Shown here: positions 9,001 to 18,000 of the stretch, in pieces
Layout: each line of letters opens with the position of its first letter
Position numbering within the stretch: the first letter of the stretch is position 1
Source of the DNA: Candidatus Methylomirabilis sp.
GTDB lineage: Bacteria > Methylomirabilota > Methylomirabilia > Methylomirabilales > Methylomirabilaceae
DNA length: 26,052 bases
NCBI GenBank assembly: GCA_041498975.1
Contig: JBGQJI010000022.1
Coordinates: forward strand, 1-26,052
Direction: 5' to 3'
Position numbers: made by a program

Positions 9001-12000
9001 CCCAGACCTCGATCCTCGTGACCGGATGGATTTCCCACGCGCTCCCCTGCACGTCTCCGACATCCTGGACATGCTCGAAATCATGTAGGAGCCAGCCTGA
9101 GAACCTCACCCTCGTCTGACGATCACAGAGGTCCAAGAACGCACGATAGGACCAGCCGGTCTTTGGGGATTGGAAGGCCCGCGTCACCTCGGTCACGATC
9201 TGCGCTCCACGGTTCTCATCAGGGACACACCGAGGTTGCTGATGTTCCCGCAGATAGGCATTGATGTCGCCCGCGCTCGAAGGACGGACCCCGGCGATGT
9301 ACCCCTCCACGCTCACGGCTCGTTCGGTATAAGCTCGGACCGTGGTCCAATCGGCTTGCCCGTATTCCTCCGGGAGGTCGGGGAGGGCGTAGAACTCCGC
9401 AAACGTCATTGGCGTGTAGCGCTTCGGGATTGCCACCCGGGCCTTCTGGTACCTGAGGTAATAAGTCTGAAAGGGATGCAGGTGGTTACCCTGCCAGCCA
9501 TTCACAAGGCGCACCGCCGCGACCCCGGAGGCCTCGATCAGGCTTGCCGGATCCGCCTCAGTCATCAGTGTCCCAACAGGACTGGTGCGGTTCCCGCCCG
9601 GAGTGAAACAAATCTCGACGGAGCCGGTCCTGGCGCTGGAGATACCAGAGCTGCAGGCGATGACCAAGAACGCGAGCGACATTTCGACCGGGCGGAACAT
9701 GCGTCAGTGGCTCTTCGGTTCCAGCGATTGAGCTTGGAGCCGCTTGATGCTCGTCCGTGATCGACACACTGCCTCGCCCTGCGAGTGATGGTCAGAGCGG
9801 GGTCGGTCTCCAAGGGTCGGACCCTTTCAGGGCCTCGAGGCCTTCCCATCGTACGCCAACCTCAAACGCTGGAGCGTTACCCATGCTGATGATCCGGACA
9901 CATTCGACTCAAGGAAATAGCCCTACTAACACAATCTCAAGATTAAGGGCGAGCACCGAGAGCAAGATTGCAGCCAAGGTCACAGGTATGCCGATCTTTA
10001 CGTAGAGCGAGTAGGAAATATGCACGCCCCTATCCCTCAGGATTCTGAACCATAGAAGCGCCGCCAGAGACCCGATAGGAAGCATCTTCGGTCCCAGATC
10101 CCCGCCTATGAGCGCCGAGAATACCAACATCTTCCTTACAAATCTCGTCTCCCCCAGCAATGACCCGAAAGACATATCCTTGATACTGAGGGCCATCGCA
10201 TAGGCGGTTGGGTGGTTGTTCATGATAGCCGAGCATGTCGCCGCGATGAACCCGCCGGCCATGGTGAGCTTGAAGATACTGGATCCCGACAGGTAGCCGA
10301 TCAACCCTCCTATCACATTCGTCAAGCCCGCATTCCGTAGTCCTGTCACAACGATGAATATACCGACGACGAAGGCTATGACATCCCAACCGACGGCCTT
10401 GATCACTTGGATGTTATCAGAGCCCTCCATCAACCCTGAGAGAATGAGCAGAGCCATCGCCCCGATGAAGGCCGCAGCCCAGATCGGCACACCGATAAGG
10501 TGTTCCAGGAAAAACGCGAGTAGTGTGAGACCCAGCACTATTCCCGAGAGAACCATGTACCGGCGGTTTTTCAGAGAATCATCGAGAGGAAGGTGCTCAT
10601 ACCTTTGGGGGAGAGCGTTCTTGAAGAACATCCTGAGGCCAACATAGCTGGTTAGCACGCTCACGAGGGCCGGGAATATCATCCACGTCGCGTATTCATG
10701 GAACCCGATGCCAAAGAGACTTGCAACGATGATGTTGATGGGATTGCTGATCACAAATGCCCCAACGAGGTTGGCGATGTAGAGCACAGCAAAGTAGTAA
10801 GGGATTTTGCTAGATAGATCCCAGGATTCTCCCTTGACCTCTTCCACCAGTTTATACACCAGGGGTGTGAAGATCAGGACGGCGGCATCGTTTGTGAAGA
10901 TGGCCCCTGTCACAGTGCCGGCAATGAATATATAGGTAAATAACGCTCTCGCGTCTCCTTTAGCGACCCTTGCGATCTGAAGCGCTAACAGCGCAAAGAG
11001 TCCCGCCTGCTCCGCGATAATGGTCAGAATCATCAGGCTGATTATCGCAATGACCGGATAGAGAAGGACACTCAGGGCTTGGTAGGCAGCATGAACCGGG
11101 ACGGCTCCCGTGATGATACTTAACAGCGCCCCTAGTATTGCAGCAGTGGCATGGCCAATCCTGATCCGCCCGAGCCTTGGCTTTACCAACGCAAGGCCGA
11201 CGGTTAAGACAAGAATAGGCAATGCGGCTTGATTAGCGTGCATGGACCCAGAATGGACGCATAAACCGGCCTCATGCCGGGAGCCTCTGGATGCGGGGCC
11301 AAACGGTGTATCAGCCCTTTTCGCCGGCGAGCCGGACAAACTCCAGTTGCTGCCCGGCCAAGAGGATGGTGCTCTCTTCCACTTCGCGGCCATCCACGAT
11401 GGCCACGGCTTGCGGGCTGATATTGAGGGCCTGGCGCAGCGCCTGGCGGACGTCGGCCACCGTCCGGCCGGCGAGGTTCGCCTCCAGGGCATGGACGCCA
11501 TACAGCACGCGCACCTGTTGTTGGGCCTTGGGCTGGCCCGCCAGCTTCGCTCTGGAGATCCCCTTGAGCTGACCCTCGCTCATCGATCGTTCTCTCCGCT
11601 GCGCGGATTCCGGGCGACAGGCTGAGCTCGTCCCTCCACGATATCCAGGTACACCTCGCCATAGCCCAATCGCCCGGAGCGCCAGGCGAAGAAGGCGTTC
11701 AGCATCGCCGAGGCGATGCTCAGATTCATGAAGAGGAGTTGAGGCGCGGCGACGGCAGCCAGCTCCTCGCAGGACATCTCCGCCGGAGACTTGTCCTTCG
11801 GGTCGGCGATCTCCGGGTGAAAGCGCGTCAGCGGCAGGGTGACGTCGCGGCCGTCCCGGCGGACGTAGACCTGGACGTTGCCGTCCGTGAAGTCGTTGCC
11901 GCCGGAGATCAGCACCACGTCTGACAGCGCTTCACAGTGGCGACTGACTATCTGCCGGGTGGCGTGGTTGTCCACCGCAAGGAAGACCAGATCGCCGGGT

Positions 12001-15000: not shown

Positions 15001-18000
15001 ACATCTCGGGGTCCGCCGCCCAGCGGAGGAGGGTCACCAGATTGGTCCGATCGTCATCGCTCATCGACGACAGATCGGCATCGGGAACGATCGTCTCGGC
15101 GTAGCCGATCACAACCAGCGGCGCACATCCCTCCCTGACGCCGAAGCAACCGGATCGGACCGCTGTCTCGAGGAGCGCAAGGACCTTCGTCGGGTGAGTC
15201 GGCAGCTCGCGTTCCGGCGGGACGTCTTGGCCCAGCGCGGTAAGAGCCCGACGCTTTGCCGCCTCGGCCTCATTGGTGAGGCCGGTGACCTTCCGAAAGA
15301 GCGCCTCTGTGGCGGAATCGGAAAAACGCAGGCCGCGCGAGCGATCGTACACGATCATCCGCTCATCGCCTGCGAGCCAGCGTCCCAGAAAGGTCGGCAG
15401 CGAGACGAACTGATCGCCCAGGCGAACCTCGTCGGCAACGTTGAAGTGCAGAACGAAGACGGAGGTCATCCTGGCGTCGATCCGCTCTTTCAGATCGCGC
15501 GCCCAGCGCGGCAGTGCTAGTTGGCCTGTGACCTGCGGCTGATGTCGATATTCCTCTGCCATCGCTGTTGCCTGTTCGCATAGATCCTTAGGGTCTCGAA
15601 CTGGACGTGCTTTATCCTAGCGCACCCTTCCGATTGCAGTCAACGTTCTTGTCCCCGCGGTTGTGCGCCCGACCGCCCCATGCCCTCCGACGACTCCAAT
15701 CAGTTGGGGCGGTCGTTGTCGGAACTGACACATGATGGAGGGGCCCGGATCAAGTCCGAGGCAAGCGCGGCGAGTGCGTCCTCCGCATCATGCGCTTCCT
15801 GCGAACACTCTGCTTGGAAACGGTTCGGGTCTCTGCTACCATGGCACTGAACAACCCGCGACGGAGAAGATGCGATGCCGACTGCCGAGGAGCTCAAAGA
15901 CGAGGACAGGCGCCTGAGACAGCTCCAGTTCGTGGTTGGTCTGACGATGAGCGTGATCAGCCAGACCAAGCTCTCGCTGGAAGAGGCGTCTCGGATGGTG
16001 GCAGCCACGAGGCAATGGGCGCTAAGGCTCTTTCCCGGGAAGGAGCTGGCCTTCGATCTGATCTATCAGCCCCGCTTCCGCAGGCTCCTCACCGAACGAT
16101 TCCACCTCCATTGAGATCAGTGCCCACTCCTACGAACAGACCGATCAAGGCCCAGCAACAGCCACCCTCAGTAGAAGTGGACTTGCTTCTTGGCGCCCAC
16201 ATGTCGATCGCAGGAGGAGTTGATCTGGCGGCGCTGAGAGGCCAGAATGTCGGCTGTCGAGCCATCCAGCTCTTCACCAAGAGCAGCAATCAGTGGCGGG
16301 CCAGGCCGCTGCCGCCCGAGGAGATCGAGCGCTATCGAGCTAACCTTCAGGCTGCCGGAATCGCCCATACTGTGGCCCACGATTCGTACCTGATCAATCT
16401 CGCCTCGACTGACCCTCCGGTATATCAGAGGTCGATGGCAGGCTTCCAGGAGGAGCTGGAGCGGGCGGAAGCGCTGGGCATTCCCTATCTGGTGACCCAT
16501 CCCGGGGCCCACATGGGGGCCGGCGAGGAGACAGGGTTACGTCAGGTGGCGAATAGCATCCGGGACCTTTTGAAGCGGACGAAAGGCTACCGCGCGCAGG
16601 TGGTTCTCGAGACCACCGCCGGCCAGGGGACCAGCTTGGGCCACCGCTTCGAGCAGATTACGGCCATCCTGGATCAAATCGGCCTCCCGGAGCGGACCGG
16701 GGTCTGCCTGGACACCTGCCACCTCTTCGCCGCCGGCTACGATATCAGGACACCCCAGGGATACGCCGACGTCCTTGGGGCATTCGACCGGATCGTGGGG
16801 ATCTCCCACCTGAAGGTCATACACCTCAACGACAGCAAAAAAGGGCTAGGGTCTCACGTGGACCGCCACGAACATATCGGCAAGGGGGCGATCGGCCTCG
16901 AGGCCTTCCGCTGCCTCGTGACCGACCCCCGTCTGCGGGGACTGCCGATGATCCTCGAGACCCCGAAAGATGGCGACTTCGTGCTGGCCGATCGCCGCAA
17001 TCTCGACACCCTGCTACGCCTGGTCCAAGAGGCGCATGCCGCCTGACGTCTCCGGGTTTGAGTTCGTCGACCAATCTCAGCCGCCGAGCGACCTTCCCAT
17101 CTTCCCGCTCCCGAATGTGGTCCTCTTCCCGAACATGGTCCTGCCACTCCACATCTTCGAGGAACGGTACAAGCGGATGATCCATGACTGTCTGCAGGCC
17201 GACCGGTACCTCGGGATCTTCCTGCTCAGAAAGGGATGGGAACAGGCCAACGACCCGCAGCCCTACGACGTTGGCGGGTTTGGTCAGATCACCCGCGCCG
17301 TCAAACTGCCGACCGGCAACTATGAAATCGTGGTTCGAGGCCTCGGAAGAGCTCGGGCCATCTCGTATACGCAGGAAATTCCATACAGGCGCGCGGTGGT
17401 TGAGCTTATTGAAAACGGGGGAGAAGATTCAGCGGAACTGCGAGCCCTAGCCGCTTCCATGGTGGAGCGGCTGAACAGGGTCCTGACTCTCCGGCCGGGC
17501 CTTGGCACAGAATTCCAGACCCACCTCAAACTGCTCGCCAGCCCGAGGGACCTCGGCTACGCGGTGGCCGCTCACTACCCGGACCTGACGGTCTATGATC
17601 GACAATCGATTCTGGAACTCAGAAGCGTCGAGGCGCAACTCCGTCAACTCAACCGCTTCCTGAACCGGGACCTCGCCCGGCTGAACTAACGCAAACGCAG
17701 AAAGCCATGTGTCATCGCGAGGGAGCAAAGCGACCGAAGCGATCTCAAACACCGCGACATTGCCACGCTCCTTTCAGTCGCTCGCAATGACAATGTAAGA
17801 GGATCAATGGGATCGCCCTAGTATAAAGTCGGACCCTGGGGCCGATCCCATCGCGCGGGGCGACGGCGCAGGGCCGTCGCCATCCCACCAGCCAAGAGCA
17901 ATCCAAGCAAGATCATCCCCCACTCGGACAGGGTGGGGATCGTCGGAGTTGGCCCCGCCACACTGCTTGCCAGAAAAATCTCGTAATTGCCGTCGCCGTT

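Follow-up and report, generated by a model that had tools for sequence, protein, structure and literature searches.

The window, the whole stretch of 26,052 nucleotides from Candidatus Methylomirabilis sp. that was analysed, contains five minus-strand open reading frames at 11311-15562, and a check of the sequence bears out both the coordinates and the tight spacing given for them in an earlier survey of the genome. The first gene encodes an AAA+ ATPase of 591 aa (13787..15562; Pfam AAA, 1.4e-20) and is followed by those for a 267-aa protein with a predicted E2 fold, termed E2L (12980..13783; placed by fold comparison and distant relationship to the Prok-E2_D/PRTRC-B superfamily), a 223-aa JAB/JAMM metallopeptidase with a complete JAMM motif (12309..12980; Pfam Prok-JAB, 1.9e-5), a minimal ThiF-type E1 of 237 aa (11580..12293; Pfam ThiF, 5.4e-19) and a 90-aa ubiquitin-like beta-grasp protein, Ubl (11311..11583), recognised by its C-terminal motif and the fold of an ortholog. 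The three Pfam matches repeat those of the survey, as does their absence for the 267-aa and 90-aa proteins. Read from the sequence, the AAA+ and E2L genes are separated by 3 nt, the E2L and JAB genes share 1 nt (TGATG), where the start ATG of the 223-aa JAB version overlaps the TGA of the upstream gene, the JAB and E1 genes lie 15 nt apart, and the E1 and Ubl genes overlap by 4 nt (ATGA). A consensus scan gives a sigma-70-like promoter match, TTGACT-18-TAGGAT, as a pattern match only, at 15614..15643 on the minus strand, some 50 nt ahead of the first codon of the AAA+ gene (2 sites found in the scan with 0.4 expected). The AAA+ gene adjoins the E2L gene in all 23 operon-type loci fetched; 22 of them also show JAB and 19 show E1, and contig ends truncate those that lack either. 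All five are genuine genes, closely coupled and under selection.

The Ubl ends directly at its stop codon with the residues AGEKG (...LEFVRLAGEKG), and the survey's conserved C-terminal glycine motif with variable tails is borne out as LEFV[RK][LQY][AS]G[ES]KG in 21/21 aligned sequences, the terminal pair being K-G and not G-G. Nine of these end at the Gly, nine carry tails of 2-39 residues and three, aligned only as far as the motif Gly, run into a fused domain; one family has the Ubl solely as a fusion precursor. Such a constant motif followed by tails or a fusion is consistent with a precursor that a peptidase trims. The beta-grasp fold proposed by the survey was examined on the ortholog from family f2, a Ubl-X112 fusion 50% identical to the window protein g00759, in place of g00759 itself, and is found there by both VIA-align (1ryj, Z 8.6; MoaD 1fm0_D, Z 8.4) and Foldseek (MoaD 6jbz_B, E 7.7e-4). 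The Ubl profile has no significant match in the PDB, where PF1061 and SAMP2 appear at E 0.13-0.21.

The JAMM motif of the peptidase is complete (E84...H130-x-H132-x7-S140-x2-D143) and its residues are kept in 29/29 orthologs, and the protein is presumed to be both the processing enzyme for Ubl precursors and a deconjugating enzyme. Its match to Prok-JAB, scored on a longer 282-aa ORF, reaches 24.9 bits with the cut-off at 25, and the best family match is NCBIfam PRTRC_A (2e-9). The E1 has the features GxGGxG (residues 11-16), D44/D46, N52-x2-R55-Q56, K64 and D108; its crossover region holds the pair S174-C175, which is invariant, C175 being kept in 26/26 orthologs and in 4/4 aligned PRTRC ThiF proteins. 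The best NCBIfam match of the E1 is PRTRC_ThiF (9.4e-20), and a tblastn search of plasmids returns 73 records, with PRTRC ThiF annotation on most of the 25 listed.

E2L has no direct match in Pfam, NCBIfam or PADLOC, and none of 32 members matches Pfam, Prok-E2_D included. The AF2 model built from 32 rows (pLDDT 87.9) was compared with 48,161 chains using VIA-align, and the E2 (UBC) fold reported by the survey reappears in 23 of the top 24 rows, which are E2/UEV proteins with Z 3.9-5.1; the best, UbcH7 (6cp2_B; rmsd 3.8, 111 aligned), has Z 5.1 from a predicted model, in a range below Z 8 where a match can reflect a common arrangement. Lower among the matches are Cap2, CdnG-E2 and BubCD-BubB (Z 3.8-3.2), a likeness to the CBASS and Bub systems. 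The E2 core is extended on its N-terminal side by a beta-hairpin part (residues 1-45) and on its C-terminal side by helices. The candidate catalytic Cys157 is located within CRVCLRG and is preceded by PNLWN (N140, N143); the survey's pattern of invariant N140, L141, N143 and C157 is reproduced in the alignment, and in a wider set of 50 sequences N140 is retained in 50/50, N143 in 49/50 and C157 in 49/50, with Ala replacing it in the remaining one. The E2L profile recruits 2029 representatives, of which 11 of 25 sampled match Prok-E2_D, two of them above the cut-off, and hhalign aligns E2L with PRTRC system protein B over 180 columns, Cys on Cys (Prob 91.4, E 9e-7; Prob 0.13 for a negative control, E2L against E1). 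By profile comparison, then, E2L is a distant member of the Prok-E2_D/PRTRC-B superfamily and not new at superfamily level, as opposed to the new E2 family that the survey had assigned to the operon.

Residues ~300-530 of the AAA+ protein form a classical AAA domain nearest to the D2 domain of VAT/VCP/Cdc48 (VAT 5vc7_A, 1.2e-43 over 301-529), with Walker A GPPGVGKT (342-349), Walker B DE (399-400), a pore loop KWVG (372-375) and R446/R456/R459 in the second region of homology. The Walker A/B motifs and pore loop are kept in 31/31 orthologs. The N-terminal 300 residues match no known family and have no significant similarity to the C-terminal half (Prob 0.9), and no HbYX terminus is found in the 31 tails. 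Gene neighbourhood is the single line of evidence pointing to a link between this ATPase and Ubl conjugates.

An AAA+ ortholog is found in 36/67 genomes of the order Methylomirabilales, covering 6/7 families, and in 0/185 genomes from the rest of the phylum; the five-gene form including the E2 gene occurs in 24/67, so that order-wide, as the survey had it, is an overstatement. One third of the f1 and f2 genomes carry the operon, which is therefore not essential. On the AAA+ tree the families are monophyletic (f1, f2 and f6 100/100, f5 100/99, f3 93/100), hence no transfer between families is visible, and the tree fits vertical descent with losses, in agreement with the vertical maintenance proposed earlier. 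The operon copy of the E2L gene has been lost at least three times in f3 and is missing from the operon in f5. Genomes without it retain paralogs at a second locus, where more E2 and Ubl paralogs are located along with TPR and alpha/beta-hydrolase genes, and one genome (93% complete) has AAA+-JAB-E1-Ubl with no E2L even by profile. The same operon, as AAA+-E2L(x4)-JAB-E1-Ubl, occurs in an unrelated 1.2-Mb genome of another phylum in which it is rare (4/301), and a lineage-specific system is not supported. The count of 6/19 genomes within Methylomirabilis is reproduced; among 20 genus genomes pmoA is present in 10 and the operon in 7, with both in none.

The operon is most closely comparable to PRTRC, the ParB-related, ThiF-related cassette (NCBIfam TIGR03734-03742), a cassette that we equate, without proof, with operon type '6d' of Iyer et al. 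Besides the family matches of E1 and JAB and the homology of E2L with protein B, the two share an E2-JAB-E1 order (B-A-ThiF on plasmids) with overlapping genes, similar sizes (256/209/241 aa in PRTRC, 267/223/237 aa here), the E1 Cys in P-x-SC and a Ubl ending in G-x-K-G, sometimes with an added tail (once in PRTRC-C). Substantial differences occur as well: the operon proteins score far under the NCBIfam cut-offs (71 vs 145 bits for E1, 37 vs 102 bits for JAB), ParB and proteins E and F are not seen, the setting is chromosomal and housekeeping whereas PRTRC lies on plasmids, an AAA+ gene is added, and the Ubl gene follows E1 instead of preceding E2, its product having no significant profile similarity to PRTRC-C (Prob 0.4). 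What is new is the architecture, without ParB, in a chromosomal housekeeping context and with a Cdc48-D2-like AAA+.

Bil (BilABCD), Bub and type II CBASS Cap2/Cap3 are likewise described as bacterial operons joining Ubl, E1, E2 and JAB/JAMM, and in Bub the operon's own peptidase is described as cleaving Ubl fusion precursors (PMC11601603; PMC11601596); these cited descriptions give them no AAA+ protein. The present operon differs from Bil in having no multidomain BilD-type E1 (PADLOC BilD at E 0.015 only) and from Bub, which acts via Tyr and Ser oxyesters, in keeping both presumptive catalytic Cys residues. Neither a Pfam match to DUF6527/PF20137 nor a CD-NTase is seen among the five operon proteins and 21 neighbouring ORFs. 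The pairing of a small protein tag with a classical-clade AAA+ with an aromatic pore loop recalls ubiquitin or SAMP with Cdc48/proteasomal ATPases in eukaryotes and archaea, and Pup with Mpa in actinobacteria. Unlike Cdc48, the operon ATPase has a single recognisable ATPase domain (NCBIfam CDC48 5e-27 on 302-521, 94.5 bits vs a cut-off of 803) and no detected double-psi-barrel N domain, and its tail differs from those of proteasomal ATPases in the absence of HbYX. Pup, which is not a beta-grasp protein and does not use E1 or E2, occurs in this genome too, as the survey stated, and an Mpa-type ATPase and 20S subunits are encoded there.

We consider it reasonably probable that the operon is a PRTRC/Prok-E2_D-type Ubl conjugation module joined to a Cdc48-D2-like AAA+ unfoldase, with an observed anatomy from which we infer the biochemistry. 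The operon might instead be a Ubl-conjugation conflict system (anti-phage or anti-plasmid) like Bil, Bub and type II CBASS that became fixed in the order, its AAA+ being an effector or regulator comparable to TRIP13 in CBASS or IetA in Iet, which we think unlikely. In the cited descriptions every bacterial E1-E2-JAB Ubl operon with an experimental characterisation has, or is assigned, a role in phage defence (PMC11601596; 10.1101/2023.09.26.559546) and the nearest core relatives lie on plasmids, but the operon is outside any defence island and on no mobile element, with housekeeping genes and no defence, integrase or transposase genes flanking it in the window and in the other-phylum locus, in line with the survey's housekeeping reading. 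PADLOC returns weak generic matches to IetA (3.9e-11) and a Cap2-type E1-E2 (2.8e-5), the former restricted to the generic AAA domain, and no model matches Ubl, JAB or E2L. The TPR and alpha/beta-hydrolase genes of the second locus and the patchy occurrence in f1 and f2 and the rarity in the other phylum would suit a conflict role, whereas the monophyly of families and the confinement to pmoA-less genomes of the genus, as opposed to a scattered occurrence, argue against it.

It is decidedly improbable that E2L is a non-catalytic E2-fold adaptor (UEV/RWD-like) that binds Ubl or passes substrates to the AAA+, with any conjugation proceeding directly from E1 as in SAMP or Urm1. Conjugation without an E2 is described for archaeal SAMP and Urm1 (PMC9574740, PMC4895103) and inactive E2-like domains have been predicted in bacterial Ubl operons (PMC1779556), although Bub E2s predicted to be inactive are reported as capable of activity (PMC11601596). 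The constant adjacency to the AAA+ gene, the low fold score, the repeated loss of the operon copy and the one genome with no E2L found would suit an adaptor; the near-invariant Cys157, which falls on a Cys that PRTRC-B keeps invariant, the retained N140 and N143, and the second-locus paralogs kept where that copy is lost point to a catalytic protein. It is very improbable that the Ubl-E1 pair works as a sulfur carrier or in activating small molecules in the manner of ThiS, MoaD or CysO, with JAB unmasking the carrier and the remaining genes being unrelated neighbours. JAMM-processed carriers exist (CysO-Mec, QbsE), MoaD and ThiS-like proteins are among the best Ubl fold matches and the E1 is of minimal ThiF/MoeB type. 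Against this reading, that E1 best matches PRTRC ThiF and not MoeB/ThiF equivalogs, the Ubl terminus is K-G and not G-G, the operon and its flanks contain no sulfurtransferase, rhodanese, MoaE, ThiG or CysM-type gene, and the E2-fold and AAA+ genes keep their linkage across the order and in another phylum.

Of the survey's complete tagging cascade, the Ubl-E1-E2-JAB anatomy and the Cdc48-like AAA+ are supported (genes, families, motifs, folds and kept active-site residues); an E2 family of its own, an order-wide range and a lineage-specific system are not. The JAMM peptidase would cut Ubl precursors, with their variable tails or, in one family, a whole fused protein, behind ...AG(E/S)KG; the minimal E1 would adenylate the freed Gly and load Ubl on Cys175, from which it would be handed to Cys157 of E2L for conjugation to target proteins, with other specificities perhaps supplied by E2 paralogs encoded at other places in the genome. 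The AAA+, with its intact Walker motifs, KWVG pore loop and arginine fingers but no HbYX for 20S docking, would engage proteins that bear Ubl and extract or unfold them, and the mark would be taken off again by the JAMM peptidase. Within the order the system behaves as a chromosomal function of a regulatory or proteostatic kind, passed on vertically yet dispensable, rather than as a mobile defence island.

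The operon is a known enzymatic core of the PRTRC/Prok-E2_D type (PRTRC being the ParB-related, ThiF-related plasmid cassette) in a new architecture and setting. Five minus-strand genes run from the AAA+ ATPase (591 amino acids, positions 13787-15562) through a putative E2-fold protein, here termed E2L (267 amino acids, 12980-13783), the JAB peptidase (12309-12980) and the ThiF-type E1 (11580-12293) to the beta-grasp protein, termed Ubl (90 amino acids, 11311-11583). Each of these open reading frames is present in the window sequence where the survey's finding had placed it, and its Pfam matches were reproduced (ThiF 5.4e-19, AAA 1.4e-20 and Prok-JAB 1.9e-5, with none for the 267- and 90-amino acid proteins). 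The junctions read from the sequence, in the direction from AAA+ to Ubl, are a 3-nucleotide gap, a 1-nucleotide overlap, a 15-nucleotide gap and a 4-nucleotide overlap, the pattern of translationally coupled genes, and a sigma-70-like site (a pattern match only) lies about 50 nucleotides upstream of AAA+, the first gene of the operon. The neighbors in the window are housekeeping genes encoding a P-type ATPase, ZIP and ArsB-type transporters, endonuclease IV, a Lon-N protein, FtsEX, M23 and S41 peptidases, TsaD and deformylase. Near-identical DNA to positions 10900-15900 occurs in many sediment metagenome runs, with half or more of the sampled words held by 12 of the 24 listed. An RNA run from a soil library (X24) has short contigs that cover JAB, E2L and AAA+ and are 90-96% alike; as these come from a relative and the library possibly contains DNA, they hint at transcription weakly at best.

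The E1 and JAB proteins direct attention to PRTRC instead of the new system that had been proposed. The best NCBIfam match of E1 is the PRTRC system ThiF (9.4e-20) and that of JAB is PRTRC system protein A (2e-9), both far under the curated cut-offs (71 bits against 144.75 and 37.3 bits against 101.8, respectively). With Pfam, E1 scores 68.7 bits for ThiF (cut-off 28.1) and JAB 24.9 bits for Prok-JAB, just below the cut-off of 25. Residues Gly-11, Gly-13, Gly-14, Gly-16, Arg-55, Asp-108 and Cys-175 of E1 are invariant in a 12-row alignment that includes PRTRC ThiF, and Cys-175, the putative catalytic residue, is kept in 26/26 orthologs and 4/4 PRTRC ThiF proteins. The JAB metal-site residues Glu-84, His-130, His-132, Ser-140 and Asp-143 (E...HxH-x7-S-x2-D) are kept in 29/29. 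A tblastn search of plasmids with E1 returned 73 records, with a PRTRC ThiF annotation on most of the 25 matches listed, and the five cassettes with annotations for each of B, A and ThiF have the order ParB-(E)-C-(F)-B-A-ThiF. The plasmid B, A and ThiF genes overlap or abut, are similar in size to the window genes and share their order, B-A-ThiF corresponding to E2L-JAB-E1. The plasmid cassettes carry ParB and E/F, whereas no ParB, integrase or conjugation gene was found by Pfam among the 21 neighboring open reading frames of the window. We know of no function for the PRTRC cassette.

E2L belongs to the Prok-E2_D/PRTRC-B superfamily and probably has the E2 fold, forming a branch outside the curated models and not the new E2 family that had been claimed. 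The description of it as a protein of no known family holds at the level of direct matches, with no hit for the window protein at E<=1 in Pfam or NCBIfam and 0/32 aligned family members matching Prok-E2_D (PF14460) at E<=1 or any E2 model directly; it fails at the level of profiles. At E<=1e-3 the profile of this 32-member alignment (A1) draws in 2029 representative proteins, of which 1174 reach E<=1e-10, and Prok-E2_D is matched at E<=0.01 over the same region by 11 of 25 sampled recruits, including two above the gathering cut-off, with PRTRC_B (TIGR03737) weakly matched by 4/18. Alignment of A1 to five plasmid PRTRC-B proteins with hhalign gives Prob 91.4 (E 9e-7, 180 columns), and A3, an independent subfamily from another phylum, aligns in the identical register (Prob 59.8, E 8.8e-5), compared with Prob 0.13 for a control against the E1 alignment. 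The PNLWN...C157 segment of E2L is placed on P..NV...GRxC of PRTRC-B, with Cys-157 on the invariant Cys and Asn-143 on the invariant Asn, the spacing between the P..N motif and the Cys being nine residues longer in E2L. Asn-140 is kept in 50/50 sequences and Cys-157 in 49/50. A structural search with the predicted AF2 model (pLDDT 87.9) again returned mostly E2/UEV entries, which fill 23 of the first 24 rows, at Z scores of only 3.9-5.1.

A word-based search with E2L found 98 relatives, all the named ones from NC10/Methylomirabilales metagenome-assembled genomes. The E2L domain has many relatives that are multidomain proteins, 500-790 amino acids long, including P0142, P0148, P0150, P0152, P0169 and P0174, with the Prok-E2_D-like domain in mid-protein (about residues 360-600) and no Pfam match in the N- and C-terminal parts. 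The C terminus of E2L carries a (S/D)DLADLMYRL motif (positions 12983-13030) common to the order and the other phylum. Open frames of 423-942 amino acids over E2L in family f2 of the order are overlapping frames in GC-rich DNA and not fusions.

The C terminus of the Ubl is strongly conserved, as had been noted, with LEFV[RK][LQY][AS]G[ES]KG and its terminal Gly kept in 21/21 aligned sequences, the ending being K-G and not G-G. Nine of the 21 end at this Gly, nine continue into unrelated tails of 2-39 residues and three into a fused domain, as would fit a precursor that the peptidase of the operon unmasks. The ending G-x-K-G is shared by PRTRC-C proteins, one of which has a long tail. No significant match of the Ubl profile was obtained to PRTRC-C (Prob 0.4) or PDB sequences (best E 0.075-0.21), and the fold was assessed on a model of a fusion from family f2 whose Ubl part is 50% identical to the window protein. 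Residues 19-93 of this model form a beta-grasp, with 1ryj (Z 8.6, rmsd 2.5, 67 aligned) and MoaD (1fm0_D, Z 8.4) as VIA matches, many later rows including Ub, SUMO, ISG15, SAMP1 and TtuB, and MoaD (6jbz_B, E 7.7e-4) found by Foldseek; the Ubl is thus predicted to have the beta-grasp fold. The f2 operon contains no Ubl gene, and the sole Ubl found, in 4/5 genomes searched, is fused to X112, a protein of the second locus described below. The fusions (L086:5031-5663 in G020, L087:4951-5619 in G008 and L088:4952-5584 in G013) are 210-222 amino acids long and consist of a Ubl ending ...LEFVRYAGEKG, a disordered linker (pLDDT 37) and an X112 domain (pLDDT 80-96) modeled as alpha-beta-beta-alpha-4beta-alpha. 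Y460 and then a TPR protein follow, and the whole looks like a natural Ubl fusion precursor.

The AAA+ protein keeps Lys-348, Asp-399, Glu-400, Trp-373, Gly-375, Arg-446, Arg-456 and Arg-459 in 31/31 sequences, covering Walker A/B, the pore loop and the SRH arginines. Its best PDB matches are to the D2 domain of VAT/VCP/Cdc48 (E 1e-43), and the NCBIfam CDC48 model covers D2 only at 94.5 bits against a cut-off of 802.65, so that by score it is not a member of that family, which has tandem D1-D2 domains and an N-terminal double-psi barrel. The N-terminal 300 residues match no Pfam family, and comparison of the N with the C half is not significant (Prob 0.9), leaving a degenerate first ATPase domain an unproven reading. 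An HbYX tail is absent from 31/31 C termini; the protein is therefore expected to act as a free-standing unfoldase and not as a 20S cap. The genome also encodes an Mpa-type ATPase and 20S subunits. Near the C terminus (positions 13787-13850 region) a SSR[QR]FLPERYR motif occurs with small variations in families f2-f6 and is diverged in f1, the family of the window's genome, and in the other-phylum locus. A separate AAA-domain gene lies on the opposite strand, about 1 kb or less from the Ubl end of four operons (L050:9339-10052, L056:2383-3096, L110:3521-4270 and L111:5893-6642), two in f5 and two in f3, where the protein has about 320 amino acids; it matches residues 292-531 of the window AAA+ with E 1e-13 to 1e-17.

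An E2L paralog (266 amino acids, 42% identical) is encoded outside the window on contig C80 of the same genome (L003:2263-6861). This second locus comprises an alpha/beta hydrolase (256 amino acids), the paralog, X112 (112 amino acids, ending ...WGxWCP), the helical Y460 (459 amino acids) and a TPR protein (329 amino acids), and is kept in f1, f3, f5 and f6. X112 and Y460 have no Pfam family and no usable ESM Atlas match. In some f3 genomes the locus additionally contains E2L, a second Ubl ending LEFVRQAGEKG, with or without a tail, and a third E2L (L065:6068-10348, L069:6077-8235, L072:6039-8069 and L079:4182-6203), and these are the genomes whose AAA+ operon has lost E2L or holds a remnant. 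Y460 is found in 6/7 f1 genomes with the AAA+ and 0/13 without, whereas f2 genomes carry it more often than the operon (16/21 against 6/21). The f2 fusion and the E2L paralogy therefore link the operon and the second locus, but not obligatorily.

Orthologs of the AAA+ (E<=1e-60, tallies including the unpublished genomes G032 and G042, which contributed no sequence) are found in 36/251 genomes of the phylum, all within the order, and in 0/185 genomes of its other orders. Within the order they occur in 36/67 genomes, the window's included, and in 15 of the 25 of high quality, distributed as 6/19 plus the window's genome in f1, 6/21 in f2, 14/15 in f3, 1/1 in f4, 6/6 in f5, 2/2 in f6 and 0/1 in f7. 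The five-gene form with E2L is present in 24/67. In f5 and part of f3 the operon is AAA+-JAB-E1-Ubl, and one intermediate locus holds a decayed E2L remnant; the E2L-less forms are scattered within f3 on the AAA+ tree, requiring at least three changes. The tree keeps every taxonomic family together (100/100 for f1, f2 and f6, 100/99 for f5 and 93/100 for f3), which fits vertical descent with losses. The flanks are common only within the genus and at family distance are uninformative either way. Among the 20 genomes of the genus the operon (7/20) and pmoA-type genes (PF02461, 10/20) never occur together, three incomplete genomes having neither, in agreement with the restriction of the operon to a non-methanotrophic clade proposed in the survey's finding. 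In an f6 genome, G045, two opposite-strand genes between JAB and E1 split the operon (L047:7644-8874), one encoding a 311-amino acid protein that may be pirin-like, as judged from an HPHRG motif, and the other a protein of 109 amino acids.

One E2L relative led to an operon in a 1.2-Mb genome of another phylum (L081:1940-9970, CAZVCF010000005.1), arranged E2L-AAA+-E2L-E2L-E2L-JAB-E1-Ubl with four E2L paralogs and flanked by housekeeping genes. Its proteins match those of the window with E values of 2e-103 (AAA+), 7e-70 (E1), 4e-51 (JAB) and 3e-16 (Ubl). An additional N-terminal domain of about 70 amino acids is conserved in the last E2L (345 amino acids) and in 12 related proteins, with the consensus G.KVRI...W.G..VTI...CY.I.EDN..Y.W..RWL. 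Of 301 genomes sampled from that phylum, only 4 have an E2L match. The operon type is thus not exclusive to the order and has moved between phyla at least once.

The reading best supported by the anatomy of the operon is a Cys-dependent Ubl cascade of the PRTRC type, the products of which would be handled by the AAA+. JAB would unmask the Ubl precursor, which would then pass to Cys-175 of E1, from there to Cys-157 of E2L and on to targets, and the tagged products would be taken up by the AAA+, a link suggested by the neighborhood conserved in two phyla. The repeated loss of E2L from the operon, its weak E2 fold score and genome G034 (93% complete), in which no E2L was found, count against a strict E2 role. 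In a wider reading, which we put forward tentatively, the system may be a bacterial counterpart, outside the actinobacterial Pup world, of ubiquitin-Cdc48 signaling, with a vertically inherited cellular function instead of one in phage defense. Here a tailed or fused beta-grasp Ubl and a minimal E1 would serve a small family of E2 paralogs (one operon has four) that mark targets, the Cdc48-like AAA+ would read the mark, and the second locus (X112, Y460, TPR and alpha/beta hydrolase) would give targets or specificity factors.

A role as a conflict system is less probable and we regard it as rather doubtful. Two sources describe the experimentally characterized bacterial E1-E2-JAB Ubl operons that they name as acting in, or assigned to, phage defense (PMC11601596; 10.1101/2023.09.26.559546). 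That all studied cousins act in defense, that relatives of the core lie on plasmids and that the distribution is patchy are consistent with such a role, whereas the genomic context and the phylogeny argue against a typical defense island. The window contains none of the signature partners of Bil, Bub or type II CBASS (multidomain BilD E1, DUF6527 and CD-NTase), and PADLOC gave weak, generic matches of E1 to Cap2-type E1-E2 (2.8e-5) and BilD (0.015) and of the AAA domain to IetA (3.9e-11), with nothing for Ubl, JAB or E2L. A sulfur-carrier function of the Ubl-E1 pair is unlikely, given the absence of a partner for sulfur transfer and the persistent linkage of the E2 and AAA+ genes.

A literature search that did not extend to most subscription journals or to the Bil/Bub supplementary operon tables turned up no account of a Ubl-E1-E2-JAB operon in bacteria that includes a Cdc48-like AAA+, or of any such system in the order. 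The enzymatic core of systems so far treated as phage-defense modules is here chromosomal, kept since the families of the order diverged and genetically tied to a Cdc48-like unfoldase. Five small soluble proteins make the system directly testable, and modified lysines are expected to retain a single Gly after trypsin, given the K-G terminus of the Ubl. Should the ATPase read the tag, the operon would provide the first case in bacteria of a beta-grasp Ubl pathway linked to protein unfolding, and a tractable model for the PRTRC-type E2 family.
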